Positions 25,773 to 46,949 of a stretch of DNA of 64,000 bases are shown here, piece after piece. The DNA comes from an uncultured Acidobacteriota bacterium (GTDB taxonomy: Bacteria > Acidobacteriota > Vicinamibacteria > Fen-336), in assembly GCA_963823195.1 (NCBI GenBank), contig CAWGKR010000001.1, positions 38,559 through 102,558 on the forward strand. Reading direction: 5' to 3'. How positions within the stretch are numbered: the stretch's first letter is position 1; each line of letters starts with the position of its first letter. Under the pieces are notes generated by a model. The model was not told the origin of the DNA and did not search any database. It saw nothing but the letters and a program-made list of their open reading frames with translations. Position numbers and translations under genes: made by a program.

Positions 25773-27899
25773 ATGACCCCCCTCGGCAAGGCCGGCCCGC
25801 GTGTCCTGGTGGCCGCTCTCTACGCGGTCCTGACCGTCCTCCTTACGTATCCCCTGATCCTCCATCTGACCACGCACCACGTCGGGGAATCCGGAGGGGA
25901 CGCGCGTGTCTACCTCTGGAACCTCTGGTGGGTCAAGACCGCACTCCTCAAGCTCCACAGCAGCCCCCTCCAGACCGACTACATCTTCTACCCGACCGGG
26001 ATCGGCCTCGCTCTCCACACGCTGGCGCTCGGCCAGGGGCTCCTGTTCATCCCGCTGAGCGCCCTCTTCGGGGACGTGGCCGGCGCCAACGCCATCGTGT
26101 TGTCGACCTTCCTCGCGTCGAGCCTGGGTGCGTACGCGCTGGCCCGTCACCTCGGCGCGGGTCGCGAGGGGGCGTTCCTGGCCGGGCTCGTCTTCGCCTT
26201 CTGTCCCTACCGCCTGGCGCGGTTGGCCGGCCACTACGACCTGCTCAGCACCGAGTGGATCCCGCTTTACGGCCTCGCGCTCTCGAAGGCGCTCGAAACC
26301 GACCGCGGGCGCTGGCGGTGGGTGCTCGTCGCGGGCTTGCTGGGTGGGGCCTGCGGCTACGTCGATCTCACGTACCTGGTCTTCCTCGCCGTCGTGTCGA
26401 TCGTCGTGCTCGCTTTCCGGCGGCCCTGGCGCGAGCGAAGGCTGCTCCCGAGGGCCGGGGCCGTCGCGGTTCTCGTCGTGGCGATCCTTCTGCCGCTCCT
26501 GCTCTCGGCATGGAGAGACGCGAAGACGTGGCGGTACGCGCCCTACCCCGGCTCCGATCGATACGTCGCCGATCTCATCGGATACGTGACCCCCGGACCG
26601 CGACAGACGATCCTCGGCGATCGTATCGGCCGGGCCTTCGAGTCCAACGTCACCGAAACGACGGTGTTCGCCGGCTGGACCACCCTCGTTCTTGCGGGAC
26701 TTGCGCTCTCACGGAAGGACGTGCGGAGGGTCCTCGCGCCATGGATCGTCCTCGGGGCGATCGCCTTCGCCCTGAGCCTGGGGGACTCGCTCCACCTGGC
26801 GGGCCACGACAGCGGCGTGCCGATGCCCTTCGCTCTCGTTCGCCGCCTGCCGCCGCTCGAGCATCTCCGCGCGCCCTCCCGTTTCGCCATTCTCGTGGTG
26901 CTGGCGCTGGCCCTGCTGGTGGCCGCGGCCTGGACCCGCGGGCTGGAAAGAGCCGCCGGGACCCGCTCGCGCCTCGCCCTCACGGCCCTCGCGGGCGCCG
27001 CGATCGCGGCCGAGGCGGCCGCCCTTCCAGTCCCCATGTTCGCCGCGGGCGCCCCCGCGGTCTTCGCGGCCATCGGTCGCGAGGCCGGTGACTTCACGGT
27101 CCTCGAGATACCCGGAATCGATCAGATCCCGGGCCAGCTCATGTACCGCCAGACCATCCACGGCAAGCGCATCCTCATCGGAACCGCCGCCCGCGTTCCG
27201 ATCGAGAAGGCGTCGTACTTCTTCGGCCTTCCCCTCGTCCGCCCTCTCGTCGACCTCCGCAAGGGGAAGCTCTCACTGGACGACGCGATGCGCCCCGAAA
27301 CGCTGGGTCCCACCGCCGAGGCGGCGCGGTTCCTGGGCGTGCGCTACATCGTCATCGAGCGCGCCTTCGAGGGGCGCGGCATCGCGCGCTTCCTCGAGGC
27401 CGCCCTGCCCACGGAGCGCATCGAGGGAGACCCCGACCGTATCGTCCTGCGGGTGCGCCCCGAGGGTCTTCCGTCCTTGCCCTCGACTCTCGAGGCCGGC
27501 GCGTCCGCCTCGCGCCTCTACTTCGAGAGCGGCTGGTCGACGCCAGAGGCCGACGGCCCCGGCCTCGTGCGCCGCGCGCTCGGGACGCGATCGACGTTGC
27601 TCTTCCGGCGACCGGCAGACGGGGCCGGCGACGTCGTGCTCACCCTGGGCAGCGTCCCGGCGGGCGAGGCGCTCCGCGTCGACGCGTGGGTCGGAGGGCA
27701 GCGCGTGGGGATCGCGCCGGTGCTGGTCGGAGGCGCGAGCCTCCGCTGGCCGCTGCTCGCGGGCCCGCTCGGGGGAGTGGAGCGAATGGAGCTCCTATGG
27801 TCGGGTCCCGGCGCTCGCGTCGCCGCCGTTCGCTTCGAGGTCCCAGACCGTGATCACCGGGCCGCCGCGCTCCACCGCATCGAAGCCGGAGTACGGTAG
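25773..27899 (+). CDS. GT-C-type (YfhO-like) polytopic membrane glycosyltransferase, type A1
   Basis: GDARVYLWNLWW, IFYP, AFLAGLVFAFCPYRL, many TMs, C-terminal soluble domain. Confidence 0.6.
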   Translation: MTPLGKAGPRVLVAALYAVLTVLLTYPLILHLTTHHVGESGGDARVYLWNLWWVKTALLKLHSSPLQTDYIFYPTGIGLALHTLALGQGLLFIPLSALFGDVAGANAIVLSTFLASSLGAYALARHLGAGREGAFLAGLVFAFCPYRLARLAGHYDLLSTEWIPLYGLALSKALETDRGRWRWVLVAGLLGGACGYVDLTYLVFLAVVSIVVLAFRRPWRERRLLPRAGAVAVLVVAILLPLLLSAWRDAKTWRYAPYPGSDRYVADLIGYVTPGPRQTILGDRIGRAFESNVTETTVFAGWTTLVLAGLALSRKDVRRVLAPWIVLGAIAFALSLGDSLHLAGHDSGVPMPFALVRRLPPLEHLRAPSRFAILVVLALALLVAAAWTRGLERAAGTRSRLALTALAGAAIAAEAAALPVPMFAAGAPAVFAAIGREAGDFTVLEIPGIDQIPGQLMYRQTIHGKRILIGTAARVPIEKASYFFGLPLVRPLVDLRKGKLSLDDAMRPETLGPTAEAARFLGVRYIVIERAFEGRGIARFLEAALPTERIEGDPDRIVLRVRPEGLPSLPSTLEAGASASRLYFESGWSTPEADGPGLVRRALGTRSTLLFRRPADGAGDVVLTLGSVPAGEALRVDAWVGGQRVGIAPVLVGGASLRWPLLAGPLGGVERMELLWSGPGARVAAVRFEVPDRDHRAAALHRIEAGVR

Positions 27900-29408
27900 G
27901 TAGAAGGCATCGCCGGAATAGAAGTACGGTTTCACCCGCGAGGCCTTGACGAACGGATCGAACACGGCCTCGGCGCGTCCGTGCGCCGCGAGCCACGCGC
28001 GCACGTCGTCGCTCGGACGGCCGTAATAGACGTAGGGGTGGTCGTGGGTGACGAGGTAGCGGATGCCCGCGCTCCGGATGGCGTCCACCTTGCACGGAAC
28101 GACCTCGGGCTTGAACGCGGGCGGACGGCGATGGTCGTCGTTGATCGCCGGCGCTCCGTAGCCTTGGCAGACGAGGACACGGGATCGGGGCGGCAGGTGC
28201 TCGGCGACCCAGTCGGCGGCCAGGAGCCGCGTATCGGGTCGGGCCGCCAGATGGTCGTACTTCAGGACGCTGACGAGGGGCGGCAGGGCGAGCGCCGCTG
28301 CGGCCAGGGTCGCGACCGCCTTGCCTGCGTGAGGCAGGCCGGCGAGGACCGCTTCCGACGCCAGGATGGCGAGGGGGGGGACCATCGGGAGCGTGTAGCG
28401 TCCGAGCACCCACGTCATCGTGGCCATGCTGGCGAACGTCGGCGCGAGGAACGCCAGGAACAGCACGTCCGCCGGCCTCCTTCGCCAGAGCGCTCGGGCC
28501 AAGCCGGCCACTGCGGCGAGGTATCCCGGCCAGCCGAAGGCGCCGGGGAGCGTGACGGTCACGTGGGTGATCCAAGCTGGCGCTCCCGGGCTGCTGAAGA
28601 GCGCCTCCCTCTGCACGACGAGTCCCTTCACGACCTGATCGAAATGAATCACGCATGCCGGCGACGTGGCGGCGAAGGCCGCCGCCATCGCGCCGCCGCT
28701 CACGAGGAGCGAGCCCATGGCGCGCCGCCGGTCACCTTCCTCCGCTGGCCGCCAAAGACGCGGCAGGGCCGCGACCAGGGTCCCGATCAGGACGGTGCCC
28801 GCGTTGTACTTGGCCGAGGTCGCCAGGCCGGCGAAGAGGCCTGCCACGAGGTAGTCGCGACGCTTCTGGGTCCGAGCGGCGCGTAGGCCGAAGGCCAGGG
28901 AGAGGGTGACGAAGAACGTCATCGGAATGTCCACGGTGCCGTAGTGCGAGTCGCGGGCGTGGAGGAAGTTGACGGCCACGAAGAGGGCCGCCAGGAGCGC
29001 CACGCTGCGACGGCCGTACGCCTGGAACGCCGCCAGTCCCGCGGCAAACACCGTCGCGGCGCCGAAGGCCACACTGACGCCCCGGCAGATGCGGTACTGG
29101 AGCCCGGGGCGGCGAACGGCGACGTCCACCAGGAAATCCTCGGTGGTCGCGTATCGACCGGTCGCCAGGCCCGCGTACCGATAGGCGGCGAGGGCGAGGG
29201 CGTCGACGTCGAAGACTAGATGAGGGTAGTTGTAGTCGCCCGGGCTCAGGACACGGCCGAGGGACATCTGGAGGGACTTGCCCACGACCAGCTCCTCGTC
29301 GGGGCGCGCGATAGGGTGAGGCAGGCCGTAGTCGAGGCCCCAGAGACGGATCCCGGCGGCCAGGATCGTGAGTGCCCCGAGGGCGATCGCAAGAGCACCG
29401 CGACTCAC
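27795..29408 (-). CDS. GT39/ArnT/PMT-like glycosyltransferase, type B1
   Basis: GTG start; RLWGLDYGLPHPIARPDEELVV, GLATSAKYNAG. Confidence 0.72.
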   Translation of the reverse strand: MSRGALAIALGALTILAAGIRLWGLDYGLPHPIARPDEELVVGKSLQMSLGRVLSPGDYNYPHLVFDVDALALAAYRYAGLATGRYATTEDFLVDVAVRRPGLQYRICRGVSVAFGAATVFAAGLAAFQAYGRRSVALLAALFVAVNFLHARDSHYGTVDIPMTFFVTLSLAFGLRAARTQKRRDYLVAGLFAGLATSAKYNAGTVLIGTLVAALPRLWRPAEEGDRRRAMGSLLVSGGAMAAAFAATSPACVIHFDQVVKGLVVQREALFSSPGAPAWITHVTVTLPGAFGWPGYLAAVAGLARALWRRRPADVLFLAFLAPTFASMATMTWVLGRYTLPMVPPLAILASEAVLAGLPHAGKAVATLAAAALALPPLVSVLKYDHLAARPDTRLLAADWVAEHLPPRSRVLVCQGYGAPAINDDHRRPPAFKPEVVPCKVDAIRSAGIRYLVTHDHPYVYYGRPSDDVRAWLAAHGRAEAVFDPFVKASRVKPYFYSGDAFYLPYSGFDAVERGGPVITVWDLEANGGDASAGTRP

Positions 29409-31049
29409 GGGGTCGGGATCTCCTCGTCCCCCGGGAGGGGTGCCTTGGGTCCGTCGGGCGTCAACGTGTAGATGCGCTCGGACCCGAGCTCCGCTGCCAG
29501 GGCGACCCCCTCGGGTAGCGACGTCGCCAGGACGATCCGCTCGCGCTGGCGATCCTCGAGCCGGTCCATGTGGACGACCACGTAGCGGACCCCGGCCCCG
29601 CGCAGAGCGCGGCTCGCCCATCCCCCGGGCCATCGCGCGCCGACCATCCCGACGTGGATGCTCGGCGGCGGTGCGAAGGCCCCCCACCCGTTCACCATCT
29701 TCTGCCCGTGGACGATCGACCCGTAGATGTAGTCGCCGTCGTACGCGGACCAGGGGATCTCGAGGACCGTTCCGCGCGCCGCGTGGGACAGCCAGCGGGC
29801 CGCGTCGGAGGGCACCGGCATCCTCTGGAACATCCCCGAGGCGTGGACGACGCCCCCTTCGCAGGCGGCCAGGGCGATGAAGCCCCATCCCCAGAACCGG
29901 AAGGAGCGGAACCGTTCCGCGAGGCTCGCCCAACCCACGGCCGCGAGGACGCAGAGTGCGAGGAGGGCGATGGGGGCCATGCGATAGGGGGTGCGCAGGA
30001 GCCGATAGCCGGGGAGCCCCCGGAGAGCATCGTAGGGTCCGGGGATCGAGAAGGGTCCGACGGCGATCTCCGGTCCGAGCGACAGCAGCACGCCGGTCGC
30101 GGCCAGCGCCACGAAAAGGCGCGACCGGCCGGCGCCGCAGGACCAGGGCGGCCACCGACAGGGCGACGACGGCGGTGCCCGGATAGTAGGCGGGGCCCGC
30201 GCGGAAGACCCGTCGCAGCGGGGCGAACGTGGGGAAGGCACCGCGGGCGCTCGGTCGCAGGTACGAGGTCCAGAGCGCGCTCCAGCCGATCAGCTCCTGC
30301 CGCTTCCGGGCGAGGCCGAACGCCTGCTGCGCCCTCAGGTAGGGCAGGAACGCCGGTGCTGCCACGAGGGCGACAAGGGCCAGAGCCACCAGGACGCGTC
30401 TGAGCGCCCTTGGCGACGCCGTCCGGAGGTGGAGCAGCAGCGTCACGGCCAGGAAGGGAGCGAGGAGCGCCGCGTAGTACCCGCTGCTCAGGGCCTGCAG
30501 GAGAACGGCGACGCCCATCCCCGTCAGGTTGGCGATCGTCGGCGACGCGAGCGAGCGCAGCAGGAACAGGAGCGCGAAGGGGAGCCATTGGATCGACATC
30601 GTCTGGATGTGGACGGCGCTCTCGAGGCGATAGCAGGAGAAAGCGTAGGCGAGCCCCGCGAGGAAGGCCCCTTCGCGCGAGTCGGTGACGTGACGAGCCA
30701 GGAGGTAGGCTCCCAGACCCGATAGGGGAAAGGTCAGCAGCCAGACCACGTTGTAGGCCTCGAGCGGCGACGCGCCGAGCGAGAGCAACGGCGCCGCCAC
30801 GAACGACTGGGCGAGCAGGCTCTCGGTGGCGGCGAGGCTCTGGGGTTGCGGGTAGTAGATGTTCGCGTCGAACAAGCGCGCCGGCGTGGTGAGATGGGTG
30901 CTCACCCAGTGGAGGGCCCAGATGTTCCCGAGGGCGTCGCCGGGGATGCCGACCGTCGACAACCCCCGCACCAGGGGCCAGAACACGGCGACGGTGAGGG
31001 CCGCATAGGCCGCGACGGCGAGGAGCGCGTCGCGGCCGCCGCCCTTCAC
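29405..31049 (-). CDS. GT-C-type (YfhO-like) membrane glycosyltransferase, type A2, frameshift ~30150
   Basis: GDALGNIWALHW, IYYP, AFLAGLAYAFSCYRL; C-terminal half in ORF 29405..30241 (SIVHGQKMVNGW). Confidence 0.6.
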
Positions 31050-31756
31050 GAGGCCGGTCTCCGCCAGACCCGGAGCAGGTTCCGGGCGCCGTGAGCGGCC
31101 TCGCGCCAGCCCAGCTTGCTCGTGCCCTCGTGGCGATCCTTGAAGCAGATCGGGATCTCGCGTATTCGCGCCCCCTCCTGGCGCGCCGCCCACAGTAGCG
31201 ACTCCACGAGGAACGAGTAGCCGGTCGACTCGATCCTCTCCCAGGGGATCGCCTCGAGGACGTGGCGCCGGTAGGCCCGGAAGCCCGAGGTGCAGTCGTG
31301 GGCCGGCAGCCGGAAGAGGAGGTGAACGAAGCGGTTCGCCGACGCGCTGAGGAGCCGCCGGTGGAGCGACCAGCCCACGATCCGGCCCCCCGCGGTGTAG
31401 CGCGAGCCGATGACGACGTCGCTGCCTTCCAGGGCCGCGAGCAGCGCCGGGATCTGCGCGGGGTCGTGGGAGAAGTCGCAGTCCATGGTCACGACCGCCT
31501 CCGCGCCGGCCTGGAGAGCCTCGCGGAATCCCGCGCGGTACGCCGTTCCGAGGCCCCGCTCTCCCCGGCGACGCAAGGTCCGCACCCTCGGTTCCCGCGT
31601 GGAGCGCGCCTCCACGAGAGCCGCTGTGCCGTCGGGCGAGTCGTCGTCGACCACCAGGACCTCGATCCGCGAATCCAGCGAGAGGATGACGTCCAGGATG
31701 GCCATGACGTTGCCCGCCTCGTTGAAGGTCGGCAGCACGATCCAGGTCTTGAGCAA
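31046..31756 (-). CDS. GT2 polyprenol-monophospho-sugar (Dol-P-Man synthase-like) synthase
   Basis: VLPTFNE, VVDDDSPDGT, RGLGTAY, MDCDFSHDP, VIGSRY, DCTSGFRAY; TTG start. Confidence 0.9.
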   Translation of the reverse strand: MLKTWIVLPTFNEAGNVMAILDVILSLDSRIEVLVVDDDSPDGTAALVEARSTREPRVRTLRRRGERGLGTAYRAGFREALQAGAEAVVTMDCDFSHDPAQIPALLAALEGSDVVIGSRYTAGGRIVGWSLHRRLLSASANRFVHLLFRLPAHDCTSGFRAYRRHVLEAIPWERIESTGYSFLVESLLWAARQEGARIREIPICFKDRHEGTSKLGWREAAHGARNLLRVWRRPAS

Positions 31757-31764
31757 GCCACCGG

Positions 31765-31794
31765 ATTGTACGCTGGTGCTAGACTCCCGCCATG
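31765..31794. promoter_or_regulatory. Compact bidirectional promoter: TACAAT (-) and TGCTAGACT (+) followed 6 nt later by ATG
   Basis: attgta at 31765-31770 lies 8 nt before the GT2 TTG; TAGACT 31780-31785; ATG 31792-31794; no SD. Confidence 0.55.
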
Positions 31795-33847
31795 GTGCGT
31801 CGTGACGCGGCAGGGGCATCGGGTACGTCAAAGACCGGTGCGACTGCTGCTCGCTGCGCCACTCCAGCCGGTGCAAGACCGGTCCCGGTAGGCGTCGGAG
31901 CGCCGGGTAGCAGGCCCCAGGCGGTGGGTGGAGACCCTGCCGTCCGAGCGGGGCGTCAAGAGCCCGCGAGGCGGCGGAAGCCGCGCAGCGGGGAGCAAGC
32001 ACGCGGGCCGCAACATGAAGTGAAGCCTGCAGCCTCGACAGATGAACAAACCGGGGGCCGAGCCGCTCATGTCACGGCGAAGGCAACACCGGCGGTCCGA
32101 GATCCGAAGCGGGCCGTTGGCCTTGGCGGGGTAGGGGGCGCAGCACGTGTGCAAGGAGTGGAGCGGAACACGAGAGGCCCGTCTGCGCAGCCTGAGTCAA
32201 GGCAAGGCGCCTCGCATAAGCCGAAGGCGAAATCGAGCGTCGCGCAGCGGGAGTCCGAGGGGGTCGTAGTACCGATGATGGCCGCGAAGAACAACGCGGC
32301 TTTAGGGAAGGACCCCTGGGGTGGTCGTGTCGACGGAGCAGGTAAGCGCGAGGGAATGGCCGGCGAGACCGGACCTAACGACCCCGGCGGCTTTGTGCCG
32401 CGCGAGAAAGTGCGAGAACTGCAACGTCGGCTGTGGGCCGGGGCCAAGCGGGCTCCGGGACGCCGTTTTCACGCGCTTTACGACCAGGTCTGGAGGGGTG
32501 ACGTCCTCCGGGAAGCGTGGGAACGAGTGAGTCGGAACCGCGGCGCCGCGGGAATCGACGGCCAGTCGATCCGTGACGTCGAGCAGAGCGGAGTGGAGAG
32601 CTTCCTGGAAGGACTCGCCACCGAGCTGCGAACAGGCGAATACCGGCCGAGCGTGGTCCGACGCCGGTACATACCGAAGGCCGATGGGAAGAAGAGGCCG
32701 CTGGGGATTCCGACGGTACGGGACCGGGTGGCACAGATGGCGGCAAAGCTCGTGCTGGAGCCGATCTTCGAGGCGGATTTTCTGCCTGTCTCGTACGGCT
32801 TCCGTCCGAAGCGGAGCGCGCTGATGGCGCTGGAGGCGCTGAGGAAGCTCGGTGCCAAGGGTGGTCATCACGTGCTCGACGCCGACATACGTGACTACTT
32901 TGGAAGCATCGACCACGAGAAGCTGCTGAAGCTCGTGGCACGACGCGTCTCGGACCGGCGGGTCTTGAAGCTGCTGCGGCGGTGGCTCGAGGCAGGAGTG
33001 ATGGAAGAGGGCACCGTCAGTGCGACGGTGGCGGGCACGCCGCAGGGTGGGGTGATCTCACCCTTGCTCTCGAACATCTACCTGCACGTGCTCGACGTTT
33101 TGTGGACGCGCCACAGCGCTCCCCTCGGGACGCTGGTGCGCTACGCGGACGACTTCGTGGTGATGTGCCGCACCGCGAGGGAGTGCGAGCGGGCCGAGGA
33201 GCGCATCAGGGTCATCCTGGGGCGTCTCGGTCTCGAGCTTCACCCGGACAAGACGAGGCGGGTCGAGCTTTTCGATGGCAAGGAGGGCTTCGACTTCCTC
33301 GGCTGCCACCTGCACAAGCGTCTGAGCGGCAAGCTGTGGGAGCAGACGCGCAAGCGTCTCTATTTTCTGCAGCGCTGGCCGTCGCAGCGCTCGATGCAGC
33401 GCGTACGGCAACGCGTGAAGGAGCTCACTCCGAGATCGAGGTGCCACGCGGACGTCCGCGATGTCGTCGCCGATCTAAACCCCGTGCTGCGGGGCTGGGG
33501 CAACTACTTCCGCACCGGGAACGCCGCGCGCCGTTTCATCCAGCTCGACACCTACGTGTGGCGGAGGCTCCGCGCCCTGCGCATCAAGCGCCAGGGTCGG
33601 CACCTGCGCGCCGGAGAAATCGACCGCTGGACCCGGGACTACTTCCATAACCTCGGCCTTCACCGCCTGCGCGGAACCGTCCGTTACCCGGAGCAGCCCT
33701 TCTGGCAACAGGAGACCGCCTAATGCTCCGGCCCGAGAGGCCACCGGAAAGCCGTGTGCGGGAAATCCGCACGCACGGTTTGAACGGGGGTCTTGCTGTC
33801 CCACGCCTTTGCAACCCGCAAGGGAAAGGATAGAAGGATCTACCAAT
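31795..33847 (+). mobile_element. Complete group II intron (IIB-like, AGC triad)
   Basis: 5' GTGCG at 31795; DIII-like GAGGGGGTCGTAGTACC..GGAAGGACCCCT; DV AGCCGTGTGCGGGAAATCCGCACGCACGGTT (33750-33780); DVI stem with bulged A33842; 3' end ..CTACCAAT; RT ORF in DIV. Confidence 0.93.
32356..33723 (+). CDS. ltrA: Group II intron reverse transcriptase/maturase, no En domain
   Basis: RT0 NRGAAGIDG, KRPLGIPTVRDR, SYGFRP, GTPQGGVISPLLSNIYL, YADD, GFDFLG, domain X LRGWGNYF; ends with no HNH motif. Confidence 0.95.
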   Translation: MAGETGPNDPGGFVPREKVRELQRRLWAGAKRAPGRRFHALYDQVWRGDVLREAWERVSRNRGAAGIDGQSIRDVEQSGVESFLEGLATELRTGEYRPSVVRRRYIPKADGKKRPLGIPTVRDRVAQMAAKLVLEPIFEADFLPVSYGFRPKRSALMALEALRKLGAKGGHHVLDADIRDYFGSIDHEKLLKLVARRVSDRRVLKLLRRWLEAGVMEEGTVSATVAGTPQGGVISPLLSNIYLHVLDVLWTRHSAPLGTLVRYADDFVVMCRTARECERAEERIRVILGRLGLELHPDKTRRVELFDGKEGFDFLGCHLHKRLSGKLWEQTRKRLYFLQRWPSQRSMQRVRQRVKELTPRSRCHADVRDVVADLNPVLRGWGNYFRTGNAARRFIQLDTYVWRRLRALRIKRQGRHLRAGEIDRWTRDYFHNLGLHRLRGTVRYPEQPFWQQETA

Positions 33848-35900
33848 GCCCGCCGAAGGCCCTGCGTCCACTGGCGATCAGGGGCGCAGCCCGGGGCTCC
33901 CGGCCGACGGCGCGCGGGGTAGCACCTCGCGATGGCTTCCCTGGCTGCTGAGAGCCGCTCTCCTCCTGGAGCTCGGGAACCTGTTCGCCATCGCCGTCAC
34001 CAACGGCCTCCTCCAGCTCCCGCCCACCGGGGCGAATCGATCCGCGAGCTTCGCCGGCCACGCCGCCCTCGCGTGGCTCCTCGTGGCCCTGCTCGAGGCG
34101 CGCGGCTGGGGTGATGCCGACAGGGAGCGTAGGGGCTACAAGATCTCGCGGCTCGTGGTCGTCGGGCTCTGCTTCTGGGGAGCGCTCCTGTTCGTCCGGT
34201 CCGGTCTCCGGCTGAGCTCCGACGGCCCCCACTACTTCGTCCAGGCGAGGTCGCTGCTCTTCGATCACGACGTCGACTTCGCCAACGACTACGCCCGTGT
34301 CAAAGCCCCCGCCGCCCTCGCGAGCCAGTATCCCGTGGGCATGGCGCTTCTCTCGCTGCCGTTTCTGTCGCTGGCCCACGTGCTCCTGCTCCTGGGTCGC
34401 TGGCTCGGCTATCCCCTGAGCCCCGACGGCTTCGGATACCCCTACGAGACCGCCTTCGGCCTGGCCAGCTACGCCTTCGGCTGTCTCGGCCTGCTGGCCA
34501 TGCTCCGCGCCACGGCCCGCCTCTTCCCGGTGCGAACAGCCCTCGTCAGCGTCGTGACGGTCTGGATGGCCTCGTTCCTGATCTGGTACATGGCTTTCGA
34601 ACCCAGCATGCCCCACGCGATGTCCACGGCGTGGGCCACGCTCATGGTTTCGTACTGGCTCGAGAAGAGGCCGCTCACGACCTCACGTCAGTGGGCCCTC
34701 CTCGGCGCCATGGCCGGCGTGTCGGCCCTCGTCCGATGGCAGACGGGTGTCCTTCTGGCTGTCCCGCTGCTGGATGGGCTCCTCGAGTCGCGCCGCTCCT
34801 GGCTCAAGAGCGGCTGGGCCCTGGTCTCGTCGGCCGCGTGCTTCGCGCCACAGATGGTGTTCTGGCACCTCAAGGCCCACGGCGCCCTCGCGATGCCATT
34901 GACCCAGCACGGCGTGAGCTGGAGCCGGTTCAGCGTGGCCGAGGTGCTCTTCTCCACGAACCGGGGACTCTTCACGTGGAGCCCCGTGATCTACCTGGGC
35001 GTGGCGGGCCTAGTGATCTGGGCGCGGCGCGCGCCGCGCTTGGCGATCCTCTTCCTGTTCGGCTTCCTGCTACAGGTCTACGTCAACGCGAGCGTCGCGT
35101 ACTGGTGGTCCGGGTGGTCCTTCGGGAGCCGCCGGTTCGACAACTGCCTGCTGTTCTTCGTCGTGGGCTTTGCCGCGATGCTGGAGTTCGTGGCGCGCCG
35201 ACCCTGGCTTCCGCTGGCCGCGCTCTGCGCCTTCCTCTGCGCCTGGAACGCGGGCCTCATGCGACAGAGCCGAGAGGGACGGGTACCACCCGATCGCCTG
35301 ACCTCTTTCGAGGATGTCGCCGTCCGGAACGTGCAGATGTTCTACGCGGACGTGGGCCTGCCCTTCGCCGCTCCGGCGAACTGGTACTTCGCCTGGCGCT
35401 TCGGCGTCTCGCCGGAGCGATTCGATCGGCTGTTCGGCCACGAGGGCTTCGGCAACCTCCACCTTCCCTTCGACGCGGCCAGCGAGCCCTTCGTGGGCCG
35501 AGGCTGGAGCGAGCCCGGCGCCGATCCGAGCGGCCGGCCCTTCCGCTGGTGTGTCGGAGGCTCCTGCACGCTCCTCGTGCCCCTCAAGGCCGCGCGGCCG
35601 TATGCGCTGACGGTTCGCGTGCGACCGGCCACCGGCACCTCCCCCAACTGGGTCGGCCTGACGGTCAACGGCGCCGCGCAGCCGAAGCGAGCCCTGGCGG
35701 ACGAAGAGACGTTGACGTGGCAGCTTCTCCCGGCTCTCTGGCATCGCGGCACCAACGAGCTTCGCTTCGACTTCGATCGCTCGGCTCGGCCCTCGGAGCT
35801 GGGTCCTTCCTCCGATTCCCGTCCCCTTGCCGGCGCGATGTACGAGATGGAGCTTCTGGTCCAGGAGCCCGACGGCGGAGAGCGCGCCGATGCTCCCTAG
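33846..35900 (+). CDS. GT-C-type polytopic membrane protein, type C; start codon formed at the intron 3' junction
   Basis: SDGPHYFVQARSLLFDHDVDFANDY, EPSMPH, RGLFTWSPV, GSRRF; many TMs; C-terminal beta-rich domain. Confidence 0.6.
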   Translation: MPAEGPASTGDQGRSPGLPADGARGSTSRWLPWLLRAALLLELGNLFAIAVTNGLLQLPPTGANRSASFAGHAALAWLLVALLEARGWGDADRERRGYKISRLVVVGLCFWGALLFVRSGLRLSSDGPHYFVQARSLLFDHDVDFANDYARVKAPAALASQYPVGMALLSLPFLSLAHVLLLLGRWLGYPLSPDGFGYPYETAFGLASYAFGCLGLLAMLRATARLFPVRTALVSVVTVWMASFLIWYMAFEPSMPHAMSTAWATLMVSYWLEKRPLTTSRQWALLGAMAGVSALVRWQTGVLLAVPLLDGLLESRRSWLKSGWALVSSAACFAPQMVFWHLKAHGALAMPLTQHGVSWSRFSVAEVLFSTNRGLFTWSPVIYLGVAGLVIWARRAPRLAILFLFGFLLQVYVNASVAYWWSGWSFGSRRFDNCLLFFVVGFAAMLEFVARRPWLPLAALCAFLCAWNAGLMRQSREGRVPPDRLTSFEDVAVRNVQMFYADVGLPFAAPANWYFAWRFGVSPERFDRLFGHEGFGNLHLPFDAASEPFVGRGWSEPGADPSGRPFRWCVGGSCTLLVPLKAARPYALTVRVRPATGTSPNWVGLTVNGAAQPKRALADEETLTWQLLPALWHRGTNELRFDFDRSARPSELGPSSDSRPLAGAMYEMELLVQEPDGGERADAP

Positions 35901-46874: not shown

Positions 46875-46949
46875 TGGTGGGCGCTGTAGGATTTGAACCT
46901 ACGACTTCCACCGTGTGAAGGTGGCACTCTACCGCTGAGTTAAGCGCCC
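46875..46949 (-). tRNA. tRNA-Val (CAC)
   Basis: GGGCGCTTAACTCAGCGGTAGAGTGCCACCTTCACACGGTGGAAGTCGTAGGTTCAAATCCTACAGCGCCCACCA; cloverleaf, encoded CCA. Confidence 0.97.

Follow-up and report, generated by a model that had tools for sequence, protein, structure and literature searches.

A group II intron family apparently targeted to the start codons of leaderless-type genes

How does a group II intron come to lie directly behind the first codon of a gene, and how could the gene and the intron still be expressed? This question is raised by an element in the window, the 64,000-nt stretch of Acidobacteriota DNA analysed here, which follows the ATG of a gene with leaderless promoter geometry and itself terminates in a second ATG.

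Intron boundaries at the host start codon

Matches to the Rfam families D1D4-4 and D1D4-6 and to domains V/VI identify the element as a group II intron (Table 1). The −10 box is followed by the 6-nt spacer CCCGCC (31786–31791), the host ATG (31792–31794) and, directly thereafter, the intron start GTGCG (31795–31799); at the other end, AAGGA (33834–33838) precedes TCTACCA (7 nt) and ATG (33846–33848). The preliminary description had located all these elements correctly. Its reading of the site as the start codon of a gene with leaderless promoter geometry holds, as does its observation that an SD-like AAGGA and the ATG opening the host ORF are carried by the intron 3′ end. Five copies in the source genome, with 99–100% identity, share the arrangement TAnnnT, 6–8 nt, ATG↓GTGCG ... 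CCAATG↓N (↓, junction), and the same pattern recurs in related genomes at 72–92% identity.

The 3′ boundary had initially been placed one base early, with only AT of the terminal triplet counted as intronic and G as exonic. The arithmetic that the resulting junction, ATG↓GCC, is out of frame was sound, whereas the boundary beneath it was not. In 14 of 15 distinct introns, the base that follows the terminal ATG pairs with EBS3, and G-C, U-A, A-U and C-G are all used; because of this covariation the intron is assigned to 31795–33848. Judged from these sequence comparisons, the 3′ splice site is after the G of the terminal ATG, the whole of which is intronic. The predicted splicing product is ATG↓CCC, in frame; it equals the 1-nt boundary shift previously proposed to restore the frame, and the claim that canonical splicing is out of frame falls. 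With the corrected boundary, the fold has a bulged branch A (33842) 7 nt ahead of the 3′ splice site, and AAGGA is situated within the 3′ strand of the domain VI basal helix, in line with its earlier assignment to domain VI, the folding of which might, as the preliminary description proposed, gate translation.

Table 1. Coordinates of the intron, its pairing segments and the adjoining host gene in the window
Feature	Position	Strand	Basis
Extended −10 element of host gene, TGCTAGACT (TGcTAGACT)	31777–31785	+	TANNNT survey; EBS2 covariation
IBS1: C−4 and host start codon ATG, last 5′ exon bases	31791–31794	+	EBS1 covariation
ORF of 643 codons from host ATG through ribozyme domains I–III into reverse transcriptase/maturase	31792–33723	+	ORF list; frame conservation
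Complete group II intron, 2054 nt, GUGCG to CUACCAAUG	31795–33848	+	Rfam; five copies with same ends
EBS2 segment CAGAUGAAC, core GAUG 32041–32044	32039–32047	+	unpaired in Rfam D1D4-6 alignment; covaries with −10 hexamer
EBS1 terminal loop UCAUGUCA; CAUG 32068–32071 pairs with C−4 and AUG	32067–32074	+	Rfam, covariation
EBS3, G after GGGGUA; pairs with C33849, first 3′ exon base	32134	+	covariation
Canonical intron-encoded protein, 482 aa from internal ATG	32275–33723	+	Pfam, TIGR04416
Domain V, 5-nt terminal loop GAAAU	33750–33780	+	Rfam RF00029, fold
Domain VI, long	33786–33845	+	fold; basal-helix compensatory changes across copies
Intron 3′ terminus AAGGAUCUACCAAUG: SD-like AAGGA, −10-like hexamer AAGGAT, 6–7 nt spacer, terminal AUG	33834–33848	+	
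3′ exon: 684-aa GT-C-like (PMT_2) membrane protein from its codon 2	33849–35900	+	ORF, GC3

The host ORF (33846–35900), opened by the terminal ATG, shows a weak Pfam PMT_2 match, and its GC3 of 0.86 is the highest of the frames. The search for a close orthologue of this gene found none, the best match having 37% identity.

Target rule and pairings across the family

The placement was examined in 126 distinct 5′ junctions from other genomes and metagenomes, 109 of which came from a metagenome search that did not presuppose an ATG. A start codon precedes the intron in 124 of them (113 ATG, 11 GTG; 2 other), so that the start-codon targeting suspected from the single locus is borne out by the alignment of other copies. 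TANNNT is present 5–9 nt upstream in 106 junctions, with a spacer of 6 nt in 64, 7 in 28, 8 in 8 and 5 or 9 in 6. Since these 106 of 126 junctions and all five genomic copies compare with a background of 1.0% of 35,428 CATG sites in the source genome, the placement is not a matter of chance (binomial p about 1e-190; the intron copies are phylogenetically related, and this and the following p-values overstate their independence). G at hexamer position −2 occurs in 54/105 cases and TGn in 20/105, an enrichment of the extended −10 element. In addition, an intron-less allele, of the kind that the preliminary description had proposed to look for, was found for the site of a sister copy: a genome of the same genus (G001) has TATAATtccgccaccATG↓CCCATGCTC uninterrupted.

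On the downstream side, all of 27 intron 3′ ends, from Myxococcota, Acidobacteriota, Planctomycetota, Gemmatimonadota and other phyla, adjoin ORFs in phase with the terminal ATG. Of 58 regions downstream of family copies, 49 show their highest GC3 in this frame, and the Pfam domain begins at residues 2–12 in all eight downstream ORFs tested; the ORFs of 8–12 of the 58 are short, which counts against our preferred explanation. These sequence comparisons support start-codon targeting as a property of the whole family in several phyla. The family is widespread and apparently undescribed, and is found directly behind the start codons of leaderless-type genes; it would specialise in a single generic target, the start codon of leaderless genes, across many unrelated genes.

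Covariation establishes the pairings of the intron with this target. Position −4 and the fourth EBS1 base have a mutual information (MI) of 0.74 and are paired in 86 of 91 cases by four Watson-Crick types (EBS1 covariation, p 3e-13), and introns behind GTG carry CAC or the wobble-pairing CAU in EBS1. EBS2 is the strand just 5′ of the EBS1 hairpin. It covaries with hexamer position 5 (Fisher p 2e-9), and its pairing tracks the hexamer, not a fixed distance from the splice site; the corresponding IBS2 is short, consisting of the last two −10 bases and 31786. In the window copy, EBS2 pairs at two of three positions, with a U·C mismatch at 31784, which we count against our preferred explanation. 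Together, the three pairings amount to 8–9 bp: EBS1 binds N plus ATG, EBS2 the 3′ end of the −10 box, and EBS3 position +1. In most subfamilies, no intron segment is complementary to the invariant TA at hexamer positions 1–2. Pairing alone is insufficient to define the target, because only 1.6% of 1174 vacant sites fitting the pairing rules have this TA, compared with five of five occupied sites.

Proposed mechanism and alternative readings

Taken as a whole, we consider it likely that this is an intact and recently mobile intron specialised in leaderless start codons, expressed from the host promoter with its ORF fused to the host ATG, and leaving the host gene two routes of expression. Reverse splicing would place the intron in the coding strand, at the precise boundary of the start codon with codon 2. 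EBS1 (CAUG) would guide it through −4 and ATG/GTG, EBS3 through +1, and EBS2 (GAU/GAG), as third guide, through the final two hexamer bases and the one that follows; a genuine −10 element would be required too, either for targeting or for persistence. With A31792 as the presumed transcription start, the intron would begin at transcript position +4 and be transcribed from the host promoter. Ribosomes may start at the 5′-terminal AUG of the host and read through domains I–III into the reverse transcriptase/maturase. For the host gene, splicing could restore AUG↓codon 2, while in unspliced RNA the last 15 nt of the intron could provide AGGA as an SD-like sequence, together with a substitute AUG in the frame of codon 2. 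The earlier suggestion of a 5′ exon of about 3 nt is supported, as the RNA 5′ exon may be AUG alone. Such an exon would form only 3 bp with EBS1, which renders exon ligation doubtful and is counted against the preferred explanation; the preliminary description took the short exon to suggest non-canonical or absent forward splicing.

The intron protein comprises a reverse transcriptase with YADD and maturase domain X (Pfam RVT_1, 1.6e-35; GIIM, 2.3e-17; TIGR04416, 415 bits); the Pfam search detected no endonuclease domain, and the nearest solved structures are group II reverse transcriptases. Comparison of the copies reveals a feature missed by the preliminary description: the intron reverse transcriptase shares its reading frame with the host ATG, and this frame is conserved family-wide. 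Across domains I–III, frame 0 is free of stops in 73 of 88 distinct copies and frames 1 and 2 in none of the 88. Domain I varies in length by multiples of three (82/86 and 72/77), and separate length classes all differ in this way. The copies also conserve, upstream of the reverse transcriptase, an internal SD-like GAGGGG followed by an in-frame ATG or GTG. This canonical start may thus be the main source of the protein, in which case keeping the upstream frame open could have no other use than to prevent early termination or polarity.

Bacterial group II introns usually insert between genes (PMC12584367), and this one lies in a 35-nt gap between divergent genes. An ordinary intergenic insertion, with both ATGs coincidental and the GT-C gene starting elsewhere, was nevertheless rejected and retains practically no credibility, as it is already refuted by the junction survey, in which all five genomic copies and 124/126 junctions lie behind ATG or GTG. 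The downstream ORFs in phase, with Pfam domains from residues 2–12, also speak against it, and no other in-frame ATG, GTG or TTG is present upstream of the first membrane helix of the host ORF. TANNNT might instead be merely a binding site, recognised by EBS2 and perhaps by the intron protein, so that targets need not be leaderless. The covariation of EBS2 with hexamer position 5 and its adherence to the hexamer would fit this view, yet we think it improbable: pairing reaches just positions 5–6 and the next base, the TA without an intron complement is invariant, and it is rare among pairing-compatible vacant sites yet present at all five occupied ones. Moreover, identical introns in the source genome are found behind TAGACT, TATAAT, TAGCGT and TACGAT with spacers of 6–8 nt, the extended −10 G or TG is enriched, the spacers (6, then 7, then 8) match distances from a −10 element to the transcription start, and an SD sequence has no room.

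The preferred reading also gives the intron 3′ end a role in host expression, which can be weighed on 45 3′ ends found without bias. Of these, 37 end in ATG and 8 in GTG, an SD-like 4-mer is present in 42, and NANNNT at a spacer of 6 occurs in 45/45, with hexamer position 2 always A and position 6 always T. It is conceivable, though we favour it less, that the host is expressed from spliced RNA only, the terminal AGGA and AUG being by-products of domain VI and of target mimicry. AGGA indeed belongs to the domain VI basal helix and co-varies with its partner strand, splicing would restore the ORF exactly, and the 3′ end resembles the intron's own target to the extent that, at 3 of the 126 junctions, the intron has inserted behind the terminal ATG of another copy. 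Against this, all 45 introns terminate in a start codon (ATG or GTG) that is in phase with the host ORF, this triplet is not a duplication because it can differ from the 5′ exon triplet, efficient ligation of a 3-nt 5′ exon is doubtful, and no known ribozyme contact calls for the last three bases to be a start codon. A replacement leaderless promoter (NAGGAT, 6 nt, ATG), from which the host would be transcribed afresh instead of being translated from an SD sequence, appears less probable still. The fixed A2 and T6, despite a variable hexamer middle, and the use of the 3′ end sequence as a target by related introns would suit such a promoter. However, hexamer position 1 is T in just 21/45 and A in the window copy, the window 3′ end has no extended −10 TG, and positions 2 and 6 are also held constant by the helix of domain VI and by UCUACC, the branch-site motif. 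A consensus scan, which requires a −35 box, found no promoter at the intron 3′ end.

Relation to known group II introns

A 5-nt domain V loop is the stated hallmark of classes E/F (PMC3753933), and, judged from RNA features only, the intron looks like a member of these classes. In common with IIE/IIF introns such as Cl.be.I2, Pe.th.I2 and Ge.ur.I1-1 (Toro 2002; Simon 2008; Nagy et al. 2013, PMC3753933), it possesses, besides this loop, a small ribozyme of about 600 nt without the ORF, a protein with reverse transcriptase and X but no endonuclease domain, EBS1 in a terminal loop with EBS2 in an unpaired strand just upstream, and a long, structured domain VI as in IIF. The introns studied were chosen for EBS-IBS pairings of at least 5 bp, whereas the window family has 3–4 bp. 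The class E/F papers examined report no start-codon or promoter target, and they describe neither fusion of the ORF to the 5′ exon nor a start codon at the intron terminus.

Insertion within or beside translation start or stop codons, with regeneration of the codon, was described for a specialised IIB1 lineage (Avi.groEL, EcKTE56.groEL), in which the groEL UAA is replaced by UAG (Michel et al. 2007). Membership of this lineage is very unlikely. The lineage is reported to have IIB1 structure and to be defined by a 300–700 nt insertion at the base of domain I, near its 5′ end, where the window intron has a hairpin of about 45–60 nt; the lineage homes to one gene, and the mechanism of codon colonisation is stated to be unknown. 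The window intron, in contrast, combines the class E/F features listed above with a generic promoter and start-codon motif.

Group IIC introns (class C), found behind transcription terminators or attC hairpins, share with the window family a protein without endonuclease domain and very short EBS1/IBS1 and EBS3/IBS3 pairings, plus one target feature that is not gene-specific. Both occupy many dispersed sites per genome because of these short pairings and the generic feature. This feature is a DNA hairpin in IIC and a −10 element with a start codon here; the window family also has EBS2, its domain V and ribozyme are not IIC-like, and it inserts at the front of genes, whereas IIC inserts behind them.

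Bacterial group II introns as a rule carry a free-standing ORF in domain IV. The yeast mitochondrial coxI introns aI1 and aI2 carry ORFs in frame with the upstream exon that are translated through ribozyme sequence; their 5′ exon is a long coding one, and the fusion protein is cleaved by a protease. In the window intron, by comparison, the exon part would be the initiator codon alone, in a leaderless bacterial mRNA.

Intron boundaries and splice sites

The sequence motifs listed in the preliminary description are all present as described. TGcTAGACT (31777–31785) is followed by six bases, the ATG of the host gene (31792–31794) and GTGCG from 31795, and at the 3′ end AAGGA (33834–33838) and seven further bases precede the ATG at 33846–33848, which opens a 684-codon host ORF with a weak Pfam match to PMT_2 (GT-C). 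D1D4-4, D1D4-6 and domain V/VI matches in Rfam lie between the two ATGs, with scores of 62.9 bits for RF02003, 51.9 bits for RF02005 and 45.5 bits for RF00029, all above the gathering threshold. The intron protein contains RVT_1 and GIIM domains and a YADD motif and scores 415.5 bits against TIGR04416 (cut-off 300); the profile search of this protein gave no match to an HNH/endonuclease domain. Five copies with 99–100% identity are present in the source genome, each reading ...CCATG/GTGCG at the 5′ junction and ...AAGGATCTACCAATG/N at the 3′ junction.

Because an ATG is present at both ends of the intron, DNA comparison alone is unable to fix the splice sites, whereas the RNA pairings with the exons are able to do so. 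Introns inserted after GTG carry CAC or a wobble in EBS1, and the fourth base of this loop covaries with exon position −4 relative to the insertion point (mutual information 0.74; 86/91 paired as G-C, C-G, U-A or A-U; p 3e-13). In 14/15 distinct introns, EBS3 pairs with the base that comes after the terminal ATG, and all four Watson-Crick pairs occur. Together, the EBS1 and EBS3 pairings define the intron as 31795–33848, ending in AUG. A longer IBS1 reaching positions −5 and −6 was rejected, since the exon bases there show no covariation and the loop bases of the EBS do not vary.

In the preliminary description, canonical splicing was thought to be out of frame. However, the EBS3 covariation sets the 3′ site after the G of the terminal ATG, so that splicing is predicted to yield an in-frame ATG/CCC junction; the frame conflict had resulted from a 3′ site set one base too early. 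The proposed location of AAGGA in the domain VI stem is borne out by the fold, in which it forms the 3′ strand of the basal helix. UACC is left after the AAGGAUC helix, and A33842, the predicted bulged branch point of domain VI, lies 7 nt from the EBS3-defined splice site.

Exon-binding elements of the intron and a tRNA gene in the window
Feature	Position	Strand	Sequence or score	Partner
EBS2	32039–32047		unpaired strand CAGAxx	part of the −10 hexamer
EBS1	32067–32074		terminal loop UCAUGUCA	start codon (through CAU)
EBS3	32134		base after GGGGUA	base following the terminal ATG
tRNA gene	46878–46949	−	Rfam 71 bits	

Start codons and −10 boxes as insertion sites

Copies with the same ends and 72–92% identity occur in related genomes, and a scan of reference genomes by the 3′ end recovered 27 true copies. 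These 27 copies come from Myxococcota, Acidobacteriota, Planctomycetota, Gemmatimonadota, Rokubacteria and Proteobacteria. Metagenomes were scanned using a 5′ pattern without exon bases, and pooling with the other sets gave 126 distinct 5′ junctions, with ATG in 113, GTG in 11 and another triplet in 2. Thus, insertion at a start codon, claimed earlier for the window copy, extends to the whole family (124/126 junctions). Third-position GC peaks in the frame of the terminal ATG in 49/58 downstream regions, signal peptides are found at the start of many downstream ORFs, and a Pfam domain starts at residues 2–12 in the eight downstream ORFs tested. On this coding evidence, the ORFs downstream of the intron can be regarded as real gene starts. 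At six loci (L012, L040, L067, L099, L121 and L260), the ORF behind the terminal ATG has only 7–15 codons; these may be sites with a promoter and an ATG and no protein gene, or decayed genes.

In the unbiased set of 45 complete copies, 37 end in ATG and 8 in GTG. This last triplet is unlike the 5′ triplet in 9/45 copies, which argues that it is intron sequence, and a 3-bp target-site duplication as the origin of the two ATGs was rejected on the same count. Seven metagenomic copies (L174, L178, L182, L197, L236, L246 and L259) are ORF-less mini-introns of the same lineage. Such mini-introns (9/45 complete copies) measure 737–988 nt, use the same site type, share the terminal ATG and presumably depend, as non-autonomous derivatives, on the protein from a full-length copy. 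A full-length copy was also found in the cultured myxobacterium Nannocystis pusilla Na p29 (L051; NZ_JAPNKE010000002.1), located behind TATGTTcccgccATG and followed by a lipoprotein-like ORF.

Upstream of the start codon, 106 of the 126 junctions have a −10 hexamer TANNNT, with a spacer of 6 nt in 64, 7 nt in 28, 8 nt in 8, and 5 or 9 nt in 6. In the genome background, only 1.0% of CATG sites have TANNNT at that distance. In addition, the G or TG of an extended −10 box is enriched at the junctions, and the interval between the hexamer and the start codon offers no space for an SD sequence. These flanks identify the insertion targets, as judged from sequence, as leaderless promoters. A −35/−10 consensus scan gave no promoter match; promoters of the extended −10 and leaderless types have no −35 box for such a scan to find.

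The intron recognises part of the hexamer by pairing. The third base of EBS2 (U/G) matches hexamer position 5 (A/C) with a p of 2e-9, the observed combinations being U-A (54), G-C (12), C-G (2), U·G (5) and about 8 mismatches, and this match follows the hexamer register at any spacer. The pairing spans only 3–4 bp and leaves the TA at hexamer positions 1–2 outside. It was preferred to a 6-bp pairing with the whole hexamer, also considered with position 3 bulged, which fits the GAUUUA subfamily alone and fails for GAUUCA, GAUAAA, GAGAAA and the GAUGAA of the window copy. Identical introns in the genome reside behind TAGACT, TATAAT, TAGCGT and TACGAT. Of the 1174 vacant sites that satisfy all pairing rules, 1.6% have the TA, compared with 5/5 occupied sites. 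Accordingly, a working −10 box appears to be needed besides pairing, which could reflect access to melted DNA, or transcription and persistence of the inserted copy.

The window copy is intact and identical to L001, its sister copy in the same genome. Two other copies there, L004 (G000:C5:502607-504664) and L005 (G000:C3:119877-121928), carry single-base indels that break the protein frame and 5–20 substitutions; the indels represent either decay or long-read assembly error, a matter relevant to the earlier warning about indels in this contig. L004 also has a 3-nt insertion in the first hairpin that keeps the frame. A same-genus genome provided an intron-less allele of the L001 site (TATAATtccgccaccATG/CCCATGCTC), as sought in the preliminary description. 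For the GT-C gene of the window, no intron-less orthologue was found, the relatives containing only paralogues with ≤37% identity, and the database lookup returned no record of the exact host protein elsewhere. Identical copies at different loci and the empty site in a same-genus genome imply recent mobility. In other genera, the Bcp/peroxiredoxin gene occupied by L001 is preceded by a GGAGG leader, with the second ATG as its start (L289–L291). In the genus of the window, the leader at this locus is gone, and a new ATG-CCC lies ahead of the old start, close behind TATAAT. The comparison indicates that a gene with a leader became leaderless and that the intron then invaded.

Open reading frame from the host ATG and expression of the host gene

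An ORF (31792..33723) runs from the host ATG through domains I–III into the reverse transcriptase, an arrangement shared throughout the family. Over the initial 465 nt, the frame of the host ATG (frame 0) is stop-free in 73 of 88 distinct copies, compared with about 4.5 stops each in frames 1 and 2, which are never open. Furthermore, the variable hairpins fall into length classes separated by multiples of three, at 83, 86, 89, 92, 95, 101 and 104 nt in one segment and from 214 to 238 nt in the next, with the rule kept in 82/86 and 72/77 copies for the two segments. As a multiple-of-three rule is not imposed by RNA structure alone, ribosomes probably read frame 0 from the extreme 5′ end.

The likeliest reason for the open frame is synthesis of the protein, in whole or in part, from the captured leaderless AUG. 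The proteins of the yeast mitochondrial introns aI1 and aI2 are translated from the upstream exon, and the likeness to the window intron is the protein start in the upstream exon, which is proposed for the latter. At the same time, an internal GAGGGG with an in-frame ATG/GTG is also conserved in the family, suggesting that a canonical start may coexist, and the open frame might instead serve mainly against early termination. Protein synthesis from the captured AUG is the preferred explanation here.

Three routes to expression of the host gene are possible, namely splicing, the SD and AUG in unspliced RNA, and a terminal leaderless promoter. Splicing would restore the leaderless mRNA. If the transcript starts at A31792, the 5′ exon consists only of AUG, and with three base pairs to the intron, poor ligation may follow. 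In the unspliced RNA, AAGGA, 7 nt and AUG occur about 120 nt past the stop codon of the intron protein. This spare start signal, already pointed out in the window copy, recurs in the unbiased set, with a terminal ATG/GTG in 45/45 copies and an SD-like 4-mer near the 3′ end in 42/45. A −10-like NANNNT six bases ahead of the terminal AUG is likewise present in 45/45 copies, and related introns have inserted behind such a 3′ end in 3/126 junctions; combined, these two features suggest that the terminal bases might act as a leaderless promoter. The three insertions, L194, L238 and L283 from metagenomes, are tandem or nested, each intron having inserted immediately after the (A/T)AGGATctaccaATG terminus of another copy, which suggests that the 3′ end of the intron mimics its own target.

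Relation to known introns and a broader reading

Classes E/F have a 5-nt terminal loop of domain V in place of the GNRA tetraloop (PMC3753933). The window intron shares this loop (GCGG-GAAAU-CCGC) and, at 2054 nt with a 1449-nt ORF, has a ribozyme of about 605 nt, within the 450–700 nt of class E/F. Its protein has no D/En; the likeness to class E/F was judged on the domain V loop, the ribozyme size and the endonuclease-less protein. Group IIC introns insert immediately after a terminator or attC hairpin. In contrast, the 5′ flanks of the window family are −10 boxes and lack a hairpin with a T run, and a covarying EBS2 is present, whereas Group IIC has none. According to PMC12584367, the IIB1 lineage of Michel 2007 likewise inserts in or next to initiation or termination codons and is defined by a large insertion of 300–700 nt at the domain I base, close to the 5′ end; the window intron has only a variable hairpin of about 45–60 nt after GUGCGUC. 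How the few introns on start or stop codons came to settle there is stated to be unknown (PMC12584367). The literature search on group II introns at start or initiation codons, whose coverage ended short of the texts of Michel 2007 and Simon et al. 2008, yielded only the Michel 2007 lineage as cited, and a search on group II introns and leaderless genes gave no link in the papers covered. In a 2015 review (PMC4424553), bacterial group II introns are given three kinds of target, namely specific homing sites, terminators and attC sites; a start codon or promoter is absent from this list.

A broader reading, which we consider rather improbable as a whole and offer tentatively, would combine a fourth target specificity, an RNP guided to the melted strand of open complexes, and two-cistron, splicing-independent expression of the host gene. 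At leaderless promoters, the RNP would target the non-template strand melted by RNA polymerase in open complexes. Such guidance would explain the true −10 box (TA, extended −10 G) required beyond 8–9 bp of pairing, as well as a spacer distribution like that of −10 to transcription-start distances. After insertion, the leaderless gene would become a two-cistron transcript. Its first cistron would be the reverse transcriptase, translated by 70S ribosomes on the captured 5′-terminal AUG, and the second would be the host protein, made from the intron-supplied SD and AUG, rendering host expression independent of splicing a 3-nt 5′ exon.

To the question of how introns settle on start codons, this family gives a concrete and testable answer: the pairings are short and cover the −10 box end, the start codon and the base after it, and a real promoter is needed in addition. 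The retroelement takes the promoter and start codon of the host together and returns a replacement start signal, which would lower the cost of residence in many unrelated genes, including housekeeping ones. Its insertion sites can serve as markers of leaderless genes in uncultured, GC-rich phyla, and with a 5′ exon of 3 nt, exon binding in group II splicing becomes a pointed question. A short, rule-based target could serve intron-based gene targeting at gene starts. The copy in cultured N. pusilla is a possible experimental system for the family.

Elsewhere, the minus strand of the window carries an ORF of 1132 codons (27795–31193), in which an Arg/Pro-rich and seemingly out-of-frame middle part lies between two GT-C-like halves; it may represent two genes or a frameshift.
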